From: a virus
Lineage: Duplodnaviria > Heunggongvirae > Uroviricota > Caudoviricetes
Length of the DNA stretch: 64,000 nt
Virus record (IMG/VR): IMGVR_UViG_2913177423_000001
Coordinates: 19,415 to 83,414 of that record
Reading direction: 5' to 3' (one strand)
Below, piece by piece: positions 1,932 to 27,538 of this stretch. A model generated the notes under the pieces. It was given only the letters and a program-made list of their open reading frames with translations, was not told the origin of the DNA and did not search any database. Made by a program: the position numbers and the translations under genes. Each line of letters starts with the position of its first letter. The first letter of the stretch is position 1.

Positions 1932-3152
1932 ATGGGAACTGCAATGAGTCAACAAACTGATACTTCTAATCTGGAAATCATCTCAGCCGCGATTGAAACG
2001 CTGCGGACACAGATCGCCCTTATTCAAAAGCGGAATCCGGGGGATGACCTGTCTAGGCGACTACATGAGAGCGTCATTGCCACTACTGATAACCTGGTCG
2101 CGGAGATCAACCAGCTACTTGAGGAAGGGACGGTTGATTACAACAAGCTGGTGGATCAGTTTGAGGAATATCAGCAAGCTGTTAATGATGGCCTGATTCG
2201 TTTTTCACAAGTCACAGGCGTATCAGCGACAGTTGAAAGCCTGGGCGATGCAGTTAATCAATTTGCCGCTAATATGCGTAGTGAGATCGGCAATCTGGAA
2301 GCGCGTCTTGAACAGGCAAATACACTGCGCAAATCTGCTGAAGCCGATTTGAGCCGTTACAAAAAAGACTATCCGCCCAGCCTGTCAAAACGTCTGGATG
2401 TTGCGGAGAAGGATAACCGCGCACTGAAAAGAGAGCGCCGGGAGCTGAAAGAGCGTTTAACAGAGCTGAATCAGCAATGTATTAAGTATCAAGGTGAAGG
2501 CGTCACTCTGCGTAAGAAGTTAGCAGCTGCGCAGAACATTATTGAAACTCTGAAACGAGAGTGCTCACAGCTTGGGCATGATCTGAATCGCGCTTGTGGC
2601 ATGGGGCAAAGACCAGAGACATTTCCGCTTATGTATGATGGGAGGGAAGCTATTGCCTATATCCATGAGTTTCCGCATGGCCTGGTCGCGGAGACTGGGC
2701 AGCGAGGAGAAGCATTACTGACGGCTAATTACCATCAGCAAATCAGAACTAGCCGCCTGCTGACTATGGATGTGATCCCATCTGTATGGGGAACGCCGCT
2801 TTACTATCGCCTCCCCGGCTTCGAAAAGGACTGGAACAACGACATAGACGAATGTCTGGCAGATAAAATAATGGCGTACCTGGAGACTGATTTCCCACGC
2901 CTGCATCGCCGGATTATGGACTCTAAGGACGCGCCGATCGATGAATTGAAAATGCGCCCAGAGACGCTGGAGGCAATCAAGCAGACGGAGTTTGACACTG
3001 TATTCAGTGTGGCCTGCATTCCAAGCTGTTTCCATGAAAGTATCCCGTTCATGCAAGGCGATCGTCGTCAGGAAATCATTGATGCTTGTCGCGTATGGGC
3101 GAACGAATGGGACAAGAAGAATGGGGGAGTAGAAGATCTTTACGGGAAATAA
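1932..3152 (+). CDS. coiled-coil protein, 406 aa, unknown function
   Basis: Long ORF; the N-terminal half is heptad-like and charged (LEARLEQANTLRKSAEADL...KRERRELKERLTELNQQ). Bracketed by operator-like sites at 1904 and 3154. Confidence 0.75.
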   Translation: MGTAMSQQTDTSNLEIISAAIETLRTQIALIQKRNPGDDLSRRLHESVIATTDNLVAEINQLLEEGTVDYNKLVDQFEEYQQAVNDGLIRFSQVTGVSATVESLGDAVNQFAANMRSEIGNLEARLEQANTLRKSAEADLSRYKKDYPPSLSKRLDVAEKDNRALKRERRELKERLTELNQQCIKYQGEGVTLRKKLAAAQNIIETLKRECSQLGHDLNRACGMGQRPETFPLMYDGREAIAYIHEFPHGLVAETGQRGEALLTANYHQQIRTSRLLTMDVIPSVWGTPLYYRLPGFEKDWNNDIDECLADKIMAYLETDFPRLHRRIMDSKDAPIDELKMRPETLEAIKQTEFDTVFSVACIPSCFHESIPFMQGDRRQEIIDACRVWANEWDKKNGGVEDLYGK

Positions 3153-3153
3153 T

Positions 3154-3170
3154 GTGTTAGAAATTTAATT
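3154..3170 (+). promoter_or_regulatory. operator-like 17-mer GTGTTAGAAATTTAATT
   Basis: Starts 2 nt after the stop at 3152; nearly identical to the site at 13374 (minus). Confidence 0.55.
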
Positions 3171-3309
3171 TCAACATACGAACATGTTGATTGTAGGTGT
3201 AACATAACATAGAATTTTCCTTGCTGGTGGAGCGTTGCCACATTTCGCTTGCTGGGCTTGATAGTCACTTATTGGTTGTTGTTCGCCCACCAGCAAATAA
3301 CAAATTAAA

Positions 3310-3326
3310 GTGTTAGAAAATTACAG
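3310..3326 (+). promoter_or_regulatory. operator-like 17-mer GTGTTAGAAAATTACAG
   Basis: Word-family member at the entry to the non-coding RNA island. A 10-bp stem, TTGCTGGTGG/CCACCAGCAA (3221-3297), lies between this site and the one at 3154. Confidence 0.5.
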
Positions 3327-3526
3327 GTATACAGGGACTCGCTTTGGCACCGAGCAAGCCAAAGTTCGGCAGGTTTAGTGCGTAAAGTGGTTTCAGAGAG
3401 AGCACTTTACGGAGTAAACGACAAGACATGTTGAGCCACGGAAGGTCTTTTTAAGATGTTCATTGATGATGGTCCGGAAGAGAGTAACGGGACTCACCGC
3501 ATCGAATCATCATCAATGCACATCCT

Positions 3527-3692
3527 CAACATTAAGGAGGCGCAGGGTTGGTTTTGTGCTCGCTTTTTTACTGACTCTGAGTCTCCTTAATGTTGCGGTA
3601 ATGCACCTATGCGGATGCGGCCTTGCATTGTGTCTTGAAAGAATGGGGTAAGGCCGGGGATATCCCCAGGGGGAGGCACCCCCGCCGCAACG
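3527..3692 (+). repeat. structured repeat unit, copy 1 (full)
   Basis: CAACATTAAGGAG...CTCCTTAATGTTG stem, CGGTAATGC tail, GGGGG-AGGCA-CCCCC hairpin, then GCCGCAACG. Confidence 0.5.
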
Positions 3693-3912
3693 AACAGCCA
3701 TAGACGGCAGTCGAGTGATGAAAACGTGAAAAGACTTTAAACCTCGTTACGGCTGGCGTGGCAAACGCGACAACCGGGATAGGACGGTGACGGGCGGAGA
3801 GAGTGCCGCATCAAGAAAGAAGCCGACTTGTGATTACTTTCTGCGGGCCTTTGAAAGTGAATCCAGCTCAGGCAGTCGGCTTCTTTCTTGTGTGAGATGT
3901 AGTAGCGTGTTT

Positions 3913-3936
3913 GCCCATCTTCGGGTGGGCTTTTTT
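3913..3936 (+). terminator. intrinsic terminator
   Basis: GCCCATC-ttcg-GGTGGGC followed by TTTTTT. Confidence 0.7.
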
Positions 3937-4119
3937 AGGGTTTTCGTCATTGTTAGCGACTTTGCGGCTGTTTATAAACTGACCATTAAAGTAAATGCAA
4001 ACGATGATCTGATGATGGTAGCGGCCTAATAAGCCTGACGCCACGGGGTATGAGTCGTCCCCCGTCAAAAAATCGACCACAGAGTGTCCCCGTCTGTGTA
4101 TTAGGGAACGGGGAGGCAT

Positions 4120-4196
4120 AACAGGCAAGGGCGCTGGTGTGATTAACCAGATGAATGAGAAGGGTCAGGTCTTTCTGGTCAGCGCCCTTACCTGTT
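4120..4196 (+). repeat. structured repeat unit, partial (stem module only)
   Basis: AACAGGCAAGGGCGCTG...CAGCGCCCTTACCTGTT, a 17-bp stem resembling the CAACAGGTAAG... stems of the other copies. Confidence 0.4.
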
Positions 4197-4397
4197 ACGT
4201 CCCTCCCGCGTAACAGCCATTGCTTGATGGTATAGGGGAAAGTTTGTTGGTTACGGGTATATCCCGTCATGCTGAAGGCGCTAATCACGCTGGAAGCCAG
4301 GGTTATGCATCCCCTGTTACCGAATTGCAGCCAGGGCGCGTTGCGCCGAAAAGCATACGGAGGTGGAAGCCCTCGCCGGAGACGTACCCGGCACAAT

Positions 4398-4474
4398 GGT
4401 GGTGTAGCTCAGTAGGATAGAGCAGCAGCCTTCTAAGCTGTCGGTCGGTGGTTCGAATCCACTCACCATCGCCA
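4398..4474 (+). tRNA. tRNA-Arg (anticodon UCU, reads AGA)
   Basis: Cloverleaf folded by hand: acceptor GGTGGTG/CACCATC, D arm GCTC/GAGC, anticodon loop CTTCTAA, T arm GGTGG-TTCGAAT-CCACT, encoded CCA. Confidence 0.9.
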
Positions 4475-4478
4475 AATT

Positions 4479-4554
4479 GCCGATTTAGCTCAGTTGGTAG
4501 AGCAGTCGCTTTGTAAGCGAATGGTCAGCGGTTCGATCCCGTTAATCGGCACCA
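4479..4554 (+). tRNA. tRNA-Thr (anticodon UGU, reads ACA)
   Basis: Acceptor GCCGATT/AATCGGC, anticodon loop TTTGTAA, T arm AGCGG-TTCGATC-CCGTT, encoded CCA; 4 nt after tRNA-Arg. Confidence 0.9.
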
Positions 4555-4557
4555 ACA

Positions 4558-4632
4558 CAACAGGTAAGGGCATTCTCCCTTATGGGGCTTGGCTTAAATG
4601 CATCGAGTGCTCTTACCGTTGTGATGAAGTGC
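4558..4632 (+). repeat. structured repeat unit, partial (stem plus tail)
   Basis: CAACAGGTAAGGGCA...TGCTCTTACCGTTG stem followed by TGATGAAGTGC; begins 4 nt after tRNA-Thr. Confidence 0.45.
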
Positions 4633-4813
4633 AGCTCTTTGAAGCAACCAGAAGATAAGCATCTGGCTTCACAACATAAACCGCAGGAACGACCAATAAA
4701 CGGTAGTCCGTATGGCGAACACCCCGTTGAGGAAGAGGCCTGGCCGGAACCGTAACCGGCACTACAACGTTGAGAGCATTGGCGTAACGGGGTCATATCC
4801 CAATCTATGAATA

Positions 4814-4900
4814 AATGTTGCGTTGCAGCGTGACAACCAGTGTTTTCAACATTGTGGTGAATGCACAGGCTGATGTGCCGCAACTACAGTAGTGCGCGCT
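4814..4900 (+). repeat. structured repeat unit, partial (stem, tail, CCGCAAC)
   Basis: AATGTTG...CAACATT stem, GTGGTGAATGC tail, GCACA-ggctga-TGTGC hairpin, then CCGCAACTAC. Confidence 0.4.
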
Positions 4901-4972
4901 TTGCGGGGCTTGCTACAACCCTGTGTCGGAGTTCAGCGCCGACCATCACAATTTATTTAGAAACTGTCATCC

Positions 4973-5386
4973 ATGAGCGCGAGAACAGTAATTATGCAGA
5001 AAGAGCAGTTTGTTATTTCTCTAGTGGTTAGCACCAGTTATCAGGTCGATAAAGTTTCGAAAGAAAGCGTACCTGAAATTGATGTTGTCGATGTGTTCGG
5101 CAATGAACTCAAAATACCACTTCGTGAATTTAATGAAATAGCAGCTCCGTTGGGCAAAATTGAAGGCCTGGAAGAATACCACAAGCGGATGATTATCGAG
5201 CGCGCCCAACTATGCCAGCGCATAAATAAGCTGGTTAGATTTATCGGAACAGATAACTTTCTCGCCATCGGCTTGGACAGTCAGTTGGAATTACAAAATC
5301 AGCTCGAAAGCATGATTGAGTATCGAAAAGCTCTTGATTCGCGGTTGATTAAATTAACCGAATATGACCCATCAGTAAGCGGTTAA
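4973..5386 (+). CDS. hypothetical protein, 137 aa, helical C-terminus
   Basis: ATG ORF with ordinary composition, embedded between RNA repeat units; no motif recognised. Confidence 0.55.
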   Translation: MSARTVIMQKEQFVISLVVSTSYQVDKVSKESVPEIDVVDVFGNELKIPLREFNEIAAPLGKIEGLEEYHKRMIIERAQLCQRINKLVRFIGTDNFLAIGLDSQLELQNQLESMIEYRKALDSRLIKLTEYDPSVSG

Positions 5387-5441
5387 TTATAAATTTGGGG
5401 CGGATGGTTAGTCCGCCGTTAACTCCATGAAACGGAGTACG

Positions 5442-5638
5442 CAACAGGTAAGAGCATTCTCCTGTAACGGGTTCATATCCCAATCTACAGGTCCACCAAG
5501 AATGCTCTTTCCGTTGCGGTGAATGCGGCTAAGCGCACGCGGAACAGTTAAAACAATCTTCCTTAATGTTTAAGTCAAACATCCCGGCGTTAATTGTTAA
5601 CTGGTTAACGTCACCTGGAGGCACCAGGCACCGCAATC
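5442..5638 (+). repeat. structured repeat unit, copy 3 (full)
   Basis: CAACAGGTAAGAGCATTCT...AGAATGCTCTTTCCGTTG stem, CGGTGAATGCGGCTAAGCGCAC tail, CCTGG-AGGCA-CCAGG hairpin, then CACCGCAATC. Confidence 0.5.
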
Positions 5639-5889
5639 TAATAAAGTTTCAAGCAATGGAGTTTTTGTTGTCAGACTACAGATATAGATGGTTGTGGAAG
5701 AATATCCTGTCCATATTCAAGTTTTTTCTTCCGCTATTTGTCTGCTTTGTCATGCTTCCTGAGCTGAAATACGCAATTTCAGACACCTTAAGCACTATCG
5801 TTACTTTTGTGTTTTATCTTTACTTTGATTACTTATTGAGCACTAAAATCTATGAATTATCCGATGAAATGCAAGGTGGCTGTAAGTGA
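5566..5889 (+). CDS. possible small membrane protein (AT-rich); weak call
   Basis: Hydrophobic segments (FKFFLPLFVCFVMLP, IVTFVFYLYF). The 5' third overlaps the conserved RNA hairpin, so a later start (ATG at about 5656) is more likely if the gene is real. Confidence 0.3.
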   Translation: MFKSNIPALIVNWLTSPGGTRHRNLIKFQAMEFLLSDYRYRWLWKNILSIFKFFLPLFVCFVMLPELKYAISDTLSTIVTFVFYLYFDYLLSTKIYELSDEMQGGCK

Positions 5890-6026
5890 TGAATTTTTGG
5901 GCGTTTGCCGATAAGAACCCTGGTTGGACATTTTTATTTCTGCTGGTGGTTGCATATGGGGTCGAGCAAGCGGCAAAAGCCTTACGCGGTTCTGGCAAAA
6001 AGCGTAAGCGGAATTGACAGTAATCT

Positions 6027-6102
6027 GGCCCCTTAGCTCAGTGGTTAGAGCTGGCGACTCATAATCGCACGGCCATCGGTTCAAATCCGGTAGGGGCCAC
6101 CA
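6027..6102 (+). tRNA. tRNA with CAU anticodon, Ile2 (ileX-like, AUA reader) rather than Met
   Basis: Acceptor GGCCCCT/AGGGGCC, D arm and anticodon stem-loop GGCGA-CTCATAA-TCGC match my memory of E. coli ileX/ileY; encoded CCA. Confidence 0.85.
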
Positions 6103-6290
6103 TATTTGGTTGTAACACGGCGTCTGGCACATGCGTCGTTAGCGGTCTGGTGACGTTAAAGGGATTCCCTCCCTCGCTTAGGCAAACAAATCAGGTAGCC
6201 GGAATGTGCAAGCCACCGTTTAGTTCTTTCTCGGATAAAGGGGCTCACCACCCTGGCGACGCGGTGTGACAGCCGGAAGAGCACGGCGCA

Positions 6291-6447
6291 CAACAGGAAA
6301 AGGCGTTTAATTAGCGTGAGCGCCGTTTCCGTTGTGGTAATTGCGGCTATGCGCTCGTGACGAAGCCATTTTCATTCATTGCGGTTCTGATAAGTGTCGT
6401 CGCCGGGCGTGGCTGACCTGGCAGGTGGAGGCACCACCGCCACAACT
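6291..6447 (+). repeat. structured repeat unit, copy 4 (full)
   Basis: CAACAGGAAAAGGCG...CGCCGTTTCCGTTG stem, TGGTAATTGCGGCTATGCGC tail, GGTGG-AGGCA-CCACC hairpin, then GCCACAACT. Confidence 0.5.
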
Positions 6448-6558
6448 CCTTTCAATTCATCATATAGCCGCTCAGGCTGTAACCCTTAATTAATACGAAG
6501 TTTCGACATCTCTATCGGTTTAACCGAGGGATGGTCGCGCGTGTAAAAAGGAGACGTT

Positions 6559-7134
6559 ATGTTAACGGCGAACGATAACGCGTATGCAGAAGCAGATCTC
6601 ATATTGAGTGACTTCATCGGTCAGCGGGAACGCTGGACACAAAAGCGAGAGGAACTTTATGCCTCGTTAGTTCGCAAAGGTGTCAACATTGAAACCGCTC
6701 AAAGCGGCGATATGACGGTAGTCAGTGTTGGATTACATGGTGTGAGCGTGTCCGCAGCCAATCATGAGCCATACGTAGCGTTATCCGAGTCGATGGCAAG
6801 GCTAATTAAGTTTCTGAAGCAAACAGAAGCCAATAATGTTTTCATCGCCAAAAAGAACATCAATTTTTCTGCCGCCGTGTTCTGGATGATGAAGGGGCTT
6901 GACGCCCGCCGGGCATCATGGCCTAAAGGGAGCTATATGTCGATGTTCCGTGGCAGTATTGGCAGTAAAGAAAAGCTCGTCGAATTCCTGCCGGAAGAAG
7001 CATTCGATATTGTGGAAGGGTGCGATGTGATGGTTATGCCTCGCCTGGTAATGATGAATGGAGATTTACAGGCACAGACAGACTGGTTCGCCACTGGCGT
7101 GGATATTATCGCGACTGACTGGGAGGCATTCTGA
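6559..7134 (+). CDS. two-domain protein with C-terminal DUF2829 (Tad2-like) module
   Basis: AGGAG RBS. C-terminal FSAAVFWMMKGLDARRASWPKG...TDWFATGVDIIATDWEAF fits DUF2829; the N-terminal ~100 aa is unrecognised. Confidence 0.75.
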   Translation: MLTANDNAYAEADLILSDFIGQRERWTQKREELYASLVRKGVNIETAQSGDMTVVSVGLHGVSVSAANHEPYVALSESMARLIKFLKQTEANNVFIAKKNINFSAAVFWMMKGLDARRASWPKGSYMSMFRGSIGSKEKLVEFLPEEAFDIVEGCDVMVMPRLVMMNGDLQAQTDWFATGVDIIATDWEAF

Positions 7135-18952: not shown

Positions 18953-19687
18953 TTAATCAGCCTCCAGTGGCAATAACGCCTTAGCCATTTCATGAATCAG
19001 CATGGCATCAATGACGCCTAGCGTATGGCCCGGCTTAATCTTTAATGCGGCCTCAAGATAGCCTCTTTCCAGAGTGGTTTTTACGCTTTTCCTGGGCGCT
19101 TGTTGGGGACTATCCGGAAGATCCGGATGGTTGCCAGCCTCATAAGCTACCCGCAACCAGTGCATGAATGTTTCCGCAGACACACAACCACAGTCCACAT
19201 CGATTTTCCCGCGTTGCTGTTCCAGCCATTGCTCAAAATCTAACTTGCAAGCCTTACTTTCAAGTTCATCACCATTGAACTCGACTTTCTGCGACGCTAT
19301 GAGAGCGGCTTCGTACTGTTCGCGAGAGACAACTGACTGGTATTCATCGCTATCAAGGTCACGAATTGGAAGCTCAATCTCACGACAAAAATTCCGCCCA
19401 TAGAACTGGTCTTTTTTGTGGTCTGAGCCAAAAGCAAAAGTCGCGCATGGCGCCATTAAATTGACACTGAGTATGTGACAATAACTCATGCCATCAGGCC
19501 ATCCGCCGCACTTAGGCAACTCCTTCACTAATAAGTCGATCAGCTTCATTGTTTTACCATCTTTGCAAGTCGCCAAAGCCATTTGAGCAAGCGCCAATAC
19601 TTCATCTGCCGTATATCCAGCACCGTGACCATACATTTCTATTCGGGAAATAATCTCTGATATACGCTCTTTATTGATTCTGATCAT
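18953..19687 (-). CDS. hypothetical protein, 244 aa
   Basis: ATGA overlap with the upstream gene at 19684-19687. Confidence 0.65.
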   Translation of the reverse strand: MIRINKERISEIISRIEMYGHGAGYTADEVLALAQMALATCKDGKTMKLIDLLVKELPKCGGWPDGMSYCHILSVNLMAPCATFAFGSDHKKDQFYGRNFCREIELPIRDLDSDEYQSVVSREQYEAALIASQKVEFNGDELESKACKLDFEQWLEQQRGKIDVDCGCVSAETFMHWLRVAYEAGNHPDLPDSPQQAPRKSVKTTLERGYLEAALKIKPGHTLGVIDAMLIHEMAKALLPLEAD

Positions 19688-27246: not shown

Positions 27247-27352
27247 GAAAACACACTGTTGCGCCCTGGCATTATCGTGGGGTATATTTCTACGGCACCT
27301 TAGAAAAACGGGTGCCGGGATTGGTCTCCCGGTAATGTCAAAGGCGACACAT

Positions 27353-27374
27353 AGACGCCGCAAGCGTCTTTTTT
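27353..27374 (+). terminator. intrinsic terminator inside the immI-like leader
   Basis: AGACGC-cgcaa-GCGTCT followed by TTTTT. Confidence 0.7.
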
Positions 27375-27538
27375 GTTGTCGGCGCACTCGCACACCTATC
27401 AATGGTGGGCTGTGTGGTGGCTTCCTCGGAAGCGCCGGTTCCCTTTGACGCCGGTAAGACCAACTCCACACAGTCCACCGCCAGTAAGATTGGTCTCTTC
27501 GGCGGTGGTATCGTTCACTGTCAAAGGAGGCTGCCAAT

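Follow-up and report, generated by a model that had tools for sequence, protein, structure and literature searches.

STnc100 (Rfam RF02076) is the Hfq-bound small RNA (sRNA) also described as EcOnc27 or sRNA103, which is encoded 75 nucleotides downstream of stx2B and belongs to the sRNA 'dyads' of the late regions of lambdoid prophages (PMC12370729, PMC12711010, PMC7873438, PMC4104026). Its homologues are known as discrete Hfq-bound RNAs from Hfq cross-linking and analysis of cDNA (Hfq-CRAC), sequencing of ligated pairs of interacting RNAs (RIL-seq) and Northern blots (PMC4104026, PMC8550237), and a 2026 preprint by Zhu, Shabalina and Storz describes PasD as structurally homologous to STnc100. 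PasD1 and PasD2 of enteropathogenic Escherichia coli E2348/69 (Pearl Mizrahi 2021), which we compare here by their description, are prophage-encoded, Hfq-dependent sRNAs of 172–173 nucleotides, in which a long and structured 5′ body precedes a short seed and then a terminator. Both the RIL-seq chimeras and the predicted seed, UGUGAG, fall within the last fifty nucleotides at the 3′ end, downstream of the structured core. In enterobacterial genomes, STnc100, EcOnc27 and PasD rank with the most abundant of the annotated sRNA families, and one family member lies beside Shiga toxin genes. The subject of this analysis is a set of repeated RNA elements that belong to this family and lie in a P1/D6-like phage-plasmid, within a 64,000-nucleotide stretch (hereafter the window; positions 19,415 to 83,414 of IMG/VR record IMGVR_UViG_2913177423_000001).

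On the plus strand of the window lie four paralogous copies of an RNA domain that is autonomous and folds compactly. It corresponds to the conserved 5′ body shared by the STnc100/EcOnc27/sRNA103/PasD sRNAs of enterobacterial prophages. Its identity as a structured plus-strand RNA domain of the STnc100 class is established. The kind of element is already known from RF02076 and PasD, and the form found in the window is a variant of it, with four divergent, sub-threshold, terminator-less cores that are coupled to leader hairpins and embedded in an operon of tRNAs and accessory genes rich in non-coding sequence. In the accessible literature we found no description of the pseudoknotted five-helix architecture of the domain, or of its separability from the Hfq-binding tail. 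An earlier note, made from the sequence alone, had reported three full and three partial copies of a modular element comprising a long hairpin (module a), a word directly after it (b), a 5-base-pair (bp) hairpin with an AGGCA loop (c) and a trailing word (d). All the sequences that it quoted are present where it placed them, but its anatomy was incomplete: the closing helix, the helices P2 to P4, the pseudoknot and the described family RF02076 went unrecognised.

Four copies of one RNA domain

In the consensus, a closing helix, P1 (always 'helix P1' below, as distinct from phage P1), encloses the helices P2, P3, P4 and P5. From 5′ to 3′ the order is helix P1, an AAU junction, P2 (3 + 2 bp with a bulge, and a UNNGC loop), a short helix closing P3, a pseudoknot strand that sits just inside P3 and pairs with the loop of P4, P4 itself, one unpaired A, P5 (5 bp with an AGGCA loop) and, abutting P5, the 3′ strand of helix P1. 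The pairing of the P3 and P4 loops is a kissing pseudoknot, except in copy 1, where a nested helix takes its place. Folding the copies singly gives the same arrangement of helix P1 and P5 as the Rfam STnc100 alignment of positions 5515–5635.

The covariance model R1, built from 38 sequences, none of them from the window, finds these four copies in the 64 kb and nothing else, and copies 2, 1 and 3 share its core fold with scores of 83.3, 49.2 and 40.0 bits. Copy 2 (5511–5639; E = 3e-22) is the best preserved, with helix P1 at 5513–5521/5629–5637, P2 at 5525–5540, P4 at 5586–5612, P5 (CCUGG-AGGCA-CCAGG) at 5614–5628 and a pseudoknot of CAGUUAA (5545–5551) with UUAACUG (5597–5603). Copy 3 (6329–6448; E = 8.9e-10) has helix P1 at 6331–6338/6439–6446, P2 at 6343–6358, P4 at 6402–6422, P5 (GGUGG-AGGCA-CCACC) at 6424–6438 and a pseudoknot of AGCCAU (6364–6369) with GUGGCU (6409–6414). 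Copy 1 (3590–3693; E = 1.9e-12) has helix P1 at 3592–3599/3684–3691, P2 at 3603–3618, P4 at 3656–3667 and P5 (GGGGG-AGGCA-CCCCC) at 3669–3683, and in place of the kissing pair it forms a nested helix of GGCCUU (3619–3624) with AAGGCC (3650–3655); its minimum-energy fold has the same helices. Copy 4 (4849–4954) is divergent and possibly degenerate, and its match to R1 is weak (15.4 bits, E = 0.01). Its helix P1 pairs UUGUGGUG (4852–4859) with CAUCACAA (4944–4951), its P2 (4863–4878) has the loop GGCUGA, and a P5-like hairpin, GUCGG-AGUUCAGCG-CCGAC, lies at 4925–4943 with a loop complementary to that of P2 (GCUGA/UCAGC). The orthologues of copy 4 in phages P1 and D6 retain the helices. Directly 3′ of the longer copy 4 of D6 lies an 85-nucleotide tRNA-like gene (locus L002, 3406–3493), which is annotated as tRNA-Ser(UGA) and scores 43 bits with the tRNA-Sec model; the window is without that gene.

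This anatomy changes how several parts of the earlier description are to be read. Words (b) and (d) exist, (b) in the form given except in copy 1, where it is one base shorter (CGGTAATGC), but they are not independent of each other: they are the two strands of helix P1, which covary among the window copies (GUUGCGGU/GCCGCAAC, GUUGCGGUG/CACCGCAAU, GUUGUGGU/GCCACAAC). The three AGGCA hairpins of module (c), at 3669–3683, 5614–5628 and 6424–6438, are each followed by the trailing word as had been said, and beyond them the 64 kb holds one more such hairpin, a chance match on the minus strand. The suggested analogy with boxB is not supported: AGGCA is not a GNRA-like pentaloop of the boxB type, and the hairpin belongs as an arm to a domain of five helices; the lambdoid nut boxB, an isolated 5-bp hairpin with a GAAAA/GAAGA-type pentaloop that is read by N, was likewise set aside as a candidate because the window hairpin carries AGGCA and abuts a closing helix. 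The repeat at 4814–4900 is real but not a partial copy, being composed of a leader hairpin (4769–4850) and the start of the fourth, divergent full domain (4849–4954), whereas the other two supposed partial copies are a leader-type hairpin only (4120–4196) and a leader-type hairpin with a decayed trace of word (b) (4558–4632). The mini-hairpins GGG(N)ATATCCC are also present, though not as a single recurring element: the one at 3656 is P4 of copy 1, and those at 4790 and 5469 belong to a separate 21-nucleotide motif, ACGGGNUCAUAUCCCAAUCUA.

Rfam's own model matches copy 2 at 5515–5635 (42.4 bits against a threshold of 47, E = 4e-7), over positions 31–147 of its 206, and gives no match to copies 1, 3 and 4 even at E values up to 10. 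The orthologues of copy 2 in phages P1 and D6 (33.4 and 39.6 bits) and the cores in the dicF–kil spacers of phages Evi and 75/02 Stx (34.4 and 32.9 bits) also remain below 47, while ten loci from our scan of viral contigs, the collection on which R1 was trained, are bona fide STnc100 at 52–161 bits when checked in Rfam. A subgroup with a P2 of the GCGGC type thus stays under the threshold; it includes copy 2, its P1 and D6 orthologues, the Evi and 75/02 Stx cores and a lambdoid type represented by locus L005. All of this tail-less subgroup is missed by Rfam's present threshold. With STnc100 the window copies have in common the closing helix, the GGUGAAU junction, P2, P4 and the 5-bp AGGCA P5 at the 3′ strand of helix P1, and both are phage-borne, often beside tRNA genes, and restricted to Enterobacterales. 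They differ in that the window copies are without model positions 1–30 (the 5′ leader) and 148–206 (linker and terminator), are embedded in an operon behind a long hairpin where STnc100 is a stand-alone gene, and have a P2 of the GCGGC rather than the CCCCC type. PasD differs in the same direction, as its seed and chimeras lie in a 3′ tail that the window copies do not have.

The domain is widespread within its host range. In a scan of species-representative genomes, all confirmed copies but one fall in genera of Enterobacterales, and the exception sits on a 388-bp scaffold labelled Prolixibacteraceae, which is taken to be a contaminant; raw pattern matches in other non-enterobacterial genomes were dismissed as chance, since none was confirmed by the model. 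The arrangement dicF–core–dicB/kil occurs in 4634 of 5426 complete E. coli genomes (~85%), at a median of two places per genome, and RefSeq annotates dicB alone under the match. In these genomes, as in locus L076 (4405–4640), DicF, its terminator, the core and dicB (or kil) make up one compact unit. The core in these Qin- and Rac-type dicF–dicB and dicF–kil spacers is about 80–86% identical to copy 2 and, like it, embedded and terminator-less; it lies 28–45 nucleotides upstream of the accessory open reading frame (ORF). It differs from the window copies in following the DicF terminator rather than a hairpin of type (a), in its helix P1 of about 22 bp and in being a single copy.

Covariation, pseudoknot and strand

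The evidence that the fold is under selection comes from alignments much wider than the window. A pattern scan of viral contigs yielded 120 loci with 146 elements and 101 distinct cores. Alignment A3 holds 98 distinct viral-contig sequences; A2 is a MAFFT alignment, not fitted to the model, and A6 holds 61 model-confirmed copies from the separate scan of species-representative genomes. The earlier note had argued for selection on RNA structure rather than on coding or on duplex-DNA sites, and had named a covariation test on a wider alignment as one way to refute it. In A3, 94.8% of helix cells are paired as against 73.5% in shuffles, and none of 500 shuffles was as good; 23 of 29 pairs change on both sides, and the covariation score reaches 0.551, as compared with no more than 0.137 for slid partners. 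The result does not depend on fitting to the model, as A2 gives 89.8% paired against 75.9% and a covariation score of 0.406 against 0.158, and it recurs in A6, with 92.5% paired against 75.1% and a score of 0.513 against 0.179. RNAalifold recovers P1, P2, P3 and P5. About 160 distinct sequences, drawn from many genera, show compensatory changes in each of the helices as well as in the pseudoknot, and selection on RNA structure is supported accordingly.

The kissing pseudoknot was tested within the first 12 nucleotides inside P3, where a helix of at least 5 bp is available in 92 of the 98 distinct viral-contig sequences and in 58 of the 61 from representative genomes. The helix is spelled by 51 and 49 different sequences in the two sets. 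Its mean length, 6.9 and 6.4 bp, compares with 4.6–4.7 bp after shuffling of the loop, and 0 of 500 shuffles reach the observed values. A search for the longest helix across the whole interior of P3 did not discriminate (7.1 against 5.7 bp). A change on both sides can be seen in a Klebsiella homologue of copy 3, where AGCCA/UGGCU has become GGCCA/UGGCC.

Not all of the domain is held equally. P3 is hypervariable on a conserved scaffold, and the parts invariant in sequence are the inner part of helix P1, the AAU junction and the loops of P2 and P5. Nearly every homologue has AGGCA as its P5 loop; the variants are AAGCA, in phage P1, and the differing loops of divergent copies.

The same alignments indicate the strand and the kind of molecule. 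Helix cells contain G-U or U-G 176 times and A-C or C-A 33 times, and this excess means that the functional form is RNA of the plus strand and excludes a strand-symmetric DNA site. The domain varies in length from about 100 to 141 nucleotides by insertions and deletions that are not multiples of three, which excludes coding; the coding potential of the element region, where there are only short overlapping ORFs, was rejected on these grounds.

It has to be considered whether the copies could nevertheless be features of duplex DNA, such as protein-binding or recombination sites, or functionless relics, that is, decayed flanks of tRNA cassettes left by module shuffling. The region is indeed a mosaic, with copies 1 and 3 common to D6-like elements only and copies 2 and 4 also in phage P1; a tRNA remnant with a GGGTTCGAATCCC T-arm lies within the hairpin that follows tRNA-Thr in P1 and D6; and GCAAC stands at both ends of each unit. 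The last point loses its force because GUUGC pairs with both of its neighbours, from which the 'direct repeat' follows necessarily. The homologues, moreover, have been detected as RNAs, the pairing works on one strand only, and compensatory changes run through all the helices. Strand asymmetry and covariation contradict this account, which is largely refuted and barely credible as a description of these copies.

Leader hairpins, downstream contexts and possible function

Each of the four cores is preceded by a long hairpin. These hairpins, module (a) of the earlier note, are real: measured against 200 shuffles each, hairpins a1 to a5 fold far better than expected (z = −5.1 to −7.7, with 0 of 200 shuffles matching the energy of any), and the leader of copy 4 does so at z = −3.5. 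The leader of copy 1 is a1 (CAACAUUAAGGAGGC/GUCUCCUUAAUGUUG, 3527–3595, −38.5 kcal/mol, z = −7.7), that of copy 2 is a4 (GCAACAGGUAAGAGCAUUCU/AGAAUGCUCUUUCCGUUGC, 5441–5517, z = −7.6) and that of copy 3 is a5 (CACAACAGGAAAAGGCG/CGCCGUUUCCGUUGUG, 6289–6336, z = −5.7), the last two overlapping helix P1 of their cores; the leader of copy 4 (GUUGAGAGCAUUGG/CCAGUGUUUUCAAC, 4769–4850) folds at −31.3 kcal/mol. Two further hairpins of this type stand apart from full cores. At a2 (AACAGGCAAGGGCGCUG/CAGCGCCCUUACCUGUU, 4120–4196, z = −5.1) R1 finds no match on the 3′ side, and 3′ of a3 (4556–4623, z = −6.1), which begins 2 nucleotides past tRNA-Thr, there is merely a decayed trace of the 5′ end of a core, GUUGUGAUGAAGUGC. 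All are on the plus strand, and hairpins of this type also occur in the unrelated lambdoid context of the L005 type.

Each leader hairpin ends in GUUG, and with these same four bases helix P1 begins; the leader stem must therefore compete with helix P1 for them. As near-perfect duplexes of 17–25 bp, the leader hairpins have a predicted length and stability that would fit a substrate of the RNase III type. Like the RNase III stems of the T7 early region, of rRNA and of the dicBF operon upstream of dicF, they sit between RNA units. The likeness to dicBF goes only so far, as the documented RNase III site there is upstream of dicF and not at the core, whereas the base of the window hairpin competes with helix P1 for GUUG. 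The idea that the long helix P1 of the dicF type is itself an RNase III site that makes the 3′ end of DicF was rejected, because published work has RNase III cutting upstream of dicF and explains the 3′ end by termination; the main text of two RNase III cleavage-map papers has nothing on the dicF–core spacer.

The leader-type hairpins have contents of their own. Inside them lies a third conserved motif, ACGGGNUCAUAWCCCAAUC(Y)A, which is a mini-hairpin of 3 bp whose 7-nucleotide loop is T-loop-like; it is present in the window at 4787–4807 (as ACGGGGUCAUAUCCCAAUCUA, within the copy-4 leader) and at 5467–5487 (as ACGGGUUCAUAUCCCAAUCUA, within a4), and also in loci L001 and L002 and those of the L005 type. 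Its closing inner stem covaries (CCUGUA/UACAGG, CGUA/UAUG, CCGGA/UCCGG), and the motif is found again in an unrelated lambdoid setting, upstream of what we take, from its sequence alone, to be a yfdR-like HD-domain gene. In phages P1 and D6 the orthologues of 4556–4623 (L001, 3150–3235; L002, 2945–3030) enclose a tRNA remnant, in which the T-arm already mentioned is joined by a 7-bp acceptor-like stem; in the window the hairpin arms are the same and the interior is unrelated. The leader hairpins may be sockets left by the gain and loss of tRNAs.

What follows the core differs across the family. Of 83 distinct downstream contexts, 42 have a terminator as the first feature, mostly 15–35 nucleotides past helix P1, and 16 have a Shine-Dalgarno sequence with an ORF, mostly at 28–37 nucleotides; the ORFs include dicB, kil and tciA. 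Taken with the location of the PasD seed in the tail, these contexts make the core a separable 5′ module that stands before a short functional single strand, be it a seed or a ribosome-binding site. In the window, there is no terminator-like site within 130 nucleotides 3′ of any copy. Copies 4 and 2 end 19 nucleotides upstream of ORFs (that of copy 2 starts at 5656), and copy 3 ends about 110 nucleotides upstream of an ORF with a Tad2-like domain.

These features suggest, on a slight balance of probability, that the domain acts, after processing, as a protective and/or recognition module at the 5′ end of the RNA that it heads. The copies would be co-transcribed with tRNAs and small ORFs, and the transcript would be cut at the leader hairpins by an RNase III-type activity and at the tRNA ends by RNase P or RNase E, so that each domain would become the 5′ end of the next RNA segment, whether an mRNA or an sRNA-like tail. 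There it may protect the 20–40 single-stranded nucleotides downstream, or mark them for a factor; family-wide, that stretch would hold either an Hfq-type seed and terminator or a ribosome-binding site. The inner part of helix P1, the AAU junction and the loops of P2 and P5 could form the recognition surface for a conserved factor of host or phage.

Several points weigh against this processed 5′ module. Each mechanistic step, as applied to the window copies, is one that we infer. Stabilisation alone under-explains the conservation, because a simple protective hairpin at a 5′ end needs no elaborate invariant fold. Copy 1 is without the pseudoknot, copy 4 scores weakly, and the copy-1 type in one Salmonella plasmid looks degenerate at 21 bits; some of the window copies may be decaying. 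The ORF downstream of copy 2 has no obvious Shine-Dalgarno sequence, a simple promoter scan upstream of the elements gave one weak site only, and CRISPR interference found the homologous region of phage P1 dispensable for plaque formation (PMC10695390).

An alternative is that the copies are cut from the operon transcript and act in trans as Hfq-associated base-pairing sRNAs, with P3 or the flanks as seeds. In its favour, STnc100/EcOnc27 and PasD are Hfq-bound, validated on Northern blots and provided with RIL-seq targets (PMC4104026, PMC7873438, PMC8550237), and P3 is hypervariable on a conserved scaffold. The window also has one plausible sRNA-like 3′ end, at 3812–3936 on the plus strand, about 220 nucleotides downstream of copy 1 and homologous to the end of the 'dicF-like' region of phage P1. 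It consists of a perfect 17-bp hairpin (3812–3828/3874–3890, −55.5 kcal/mol, z = −5.5), a short single strand with UGUGAG at 3891–3896 and a genuine intrinsic terminator at 3913–3936. UGUGAG is the hexamer predicted as the PasD seed, though a match of one hexamer may be coincidence. Copies 2, 3 and 4, however, have no such tail within 130 nucleotides, the PasD seed and Hfq chimeras fall in the linker-plus-terminator tail, and Rfam aligns copy 2 to positions 31–147 of 206 only. Action in trans by the window copies is unlikely on this evidence. The layout of 3812–3936 also resembles that of the dicF precursor, in which an RNase III stem is followed by an sRNA.

The distances at which terminators and Shine-Dalgarno ORFs follow the core are also those typical of an expression platform, and the domain might be read as a sensor, that is to say an aptamer of the riboswitch kind or a leader responding to a protein, whose folding would control a terminator or ribosome-binding site 15–40 nucleotides downstream. 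A complex pseudoknotted fold whose junction and loop nucleotides are invariant and whose peripheral helices vary would suit such a role, as would the tandem arrangements that exist. Against it, the 3′ strand of helix P1, the linker and the core show no general complementarity to the 5′ arm of the terminator, with duplex energies only slightly better than those of shuffles (mean z −0.8, with 6 of 45 below −2), and no sequestration of the Shine-Dalgarno sequences is visible. The genes that follow have no functional relation to one another (dicB, kil, tciA, a Tad2-like gene, membrane peptides), and the terminated products are stable, Hfq-bound RNAs with conserved seeds. A sensor therefore seems distinctly unlikely.

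Arrays of cores are common, with up to five copies at a viral locus and six at one locus from the genome scan. The latter, L219 (947–1991, minus strand), has two units, each with three cores in direct tandem (spacers of 6–51 nucleotides) followed by a single terminator; among its variants, one core changes the inner part of helix P1 (GGAACG.../...CGUACC) and one the P5 loop. Further arrays are found in loci L208, L194, L214, L091, L043, L028 and L013.

Such arrays, by raising capacity, would be in keeping with a mimic of the top half of a tRNA that serves as decoy or sponge for a tRNA-binding enzyme, such as RNase P or a nuclease that cuts anticodons, or else as a signal for processing by RNase P, with helix P1 as an acceptor-like stem stacked on a T-arm-like P5 and with P2 as a D-arm-like hairpin docking on the P5 loop. 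The geometry has something to recommend it, as P5 meets the 3′ strand of helix P1 without a linker, P2 begins 3 nucleotides after helix P1, and 5 bp could form in the copy-4 type between the loops of P2 (GGCUGA) and P5 (UCAGC, or UCAGU in D6). Of the 131 viral-contig copies, 43 have a tRNA gene no more than 1 kb away, those of the window alternate with tRNAs, multi-domain transcripts carry three tandem cores per terminator, and a Tad2-like anti-defence domain is encoded nearby. The mimic passes none of the sequence-model tests, however. ARAGORN and the tRNA covariance model RF00005, at E values up to 10, find only three genuine tRNAs, which also disposes of the cores as degenerate tRNAs; the P5 loop has 5 nucleotides and not the 7 of a T-loop; there is no 3′ CCA; and a helix P1 of 8 to about 22 bp is a misfit with a fixed acceptor/T stack of 12 bp. 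The canonical complementarity of the P2 and P5 loops is only 2–3 bp (GC/GC), and because these loop positions hardly vary, the contact is beyond the reach of a covariation test. We regard tRNA mimicry as very unlikely. Among tRNA-like RNAs more broadly, of which the RNase P-processed C4 RNA of P1/P7 is an example, the shared features are a closing helix on a 5-bp hairpin, a second hairpin 3 nucleotides on and co-location with tRNA genes, and the window itself carries a C4 RNA; the differences are that the cores lack the T-loop, the CCA and the anticodon arm, and have two kissing hairpins in place of the last.

A related but broader proposal, which we offer as tentative and on the doubtful side, is that the core is an autonomous, tRNA-shaped recognition domain for a conserved factor or small molecule, and a portable phage module rather than the passive body of an sRNA. 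The shape may arise from a stacked arm of P1 and P5, a P2 that docks on the P5 loop and a kissing pair of P3 and P4. If this is true, the domain would be deployed singly before toxic or accessory ORFs (dicB, kil, tciA) or fused to Hfq seeds, the arrays of three to six copies beside tRNA genes would be sponges, decoys or sensors, and STnc100-type RNAs would be a new functional class of RNA, hidden in the dicF–dicB spacer of most E. coli.

Whatever its role, the conserved part of the family is an elaborate double-interaction fold, separable from the seed-plus-terminator tail that mediates Hfq-dependent pairing, and phages reuse it without that tail both in P1/D6-like phage-plasmids, with four copies here, and in the dicF–dicB/kil spacer. 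The main value of the locus is as a lead to what the conserved fold of a widespread family does. Defined pseudoknot and loop mutants make the question of binding or sensing by the domain directly testable, also in E. coli with a dicF–dicB spacer, and the annotation of P1-like plasmids and prophages could be improved.

Genomic setting

The best match to the region is phage D6, with 90.5% identity across 72% of 3100–6600. The RNA elements occupy a stretch low in coding sequence between pmgS (1932–3152) and a 191-amino-acid ORF (6559–7134), and about 120 D6-like plasmids from Escherichia, Salmonella and Shigella carry copies 1 and 3, shared as noted with D6-like elements, without annotation. Interleaved with the elements are tRNA-Arg(UCU) at 4398–4474 and tRNA-Thr(UGU) at 4479–4554, and a tRNA with a CAU anticodon at 6027–6102, whose phage P1 orthologue is annotated as tRNA-Ile2. 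The elements and the tRNAs are all on the plus strand. The homologous segment of phage P1 is annotated within the C1-controlled ban operon, on the same strand as the tRNAs, in the order dicF-like region, tRNAs, tciABC, tRNA, ban. A permissive Rfam scan of 3100–6600 gave, apart from the tRNAs and STnc100, only noise-level matches to microRNA, tmRNA and YrlA families.

A candidate transcript start lies at 3187–3215 on the plus strand, where TTGATT-17-TAGAAT is the only sigma-70-like promoter match in 3000–6700; as shuffles give a mean of 4.5 such matches, it is weak. Stand-alone members of the family had seemed by eye to have a sigma-70 promoter of their own, with a TTGAC-like element just upstream of helix P1, and this was rejected when a scored scan showed no enrichment over shuffles. 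The candidate start is flanked by two copies (3153–3167 and 3309–3323) of a dispersed 15-nucleotide box, TGTGTTAGAAAWTTA, which occurs 10 times in the window with up to 2 mismatches against 0.31 expected: at 860, 1903, 3153, 3309, 26089, 26745 (minus strand), 38101 (minus strand), 46163, 12153 (minus strand) and 13377 (minus strand). One box lies 15 nucleotides upstream of pmgS. The boxes probably mark promoters or operators that belong to the phage itself, such as late promoters.

Two plus-strand ORFs beside the elements have recognisable domains. That at 4973–5386, of 137 amino acids, has a crAss001_48-related domain (PF21825, E = 2e-12; phrog_15270) and, between copies 4 and 2, takes the position of tciA in phages P1 and D6. 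That at 6559–7134 has a domain resembling Thoeris anti-defence 2 (Tad2; PF11195, 37.7 bits where the cut-off is 25; phrog_7362), so the RNA island adjoins, 3′ of copy 3, a candidate anti-defence gene. Farther along the window, isrK (27295–27374, plus strand, 61 bits in Rfam) is directly followed by the C4 antisense RNA (27398–27485, 73.7 bits), the two together forming the immI-type immunity RNA region of P1/P7-like phages.

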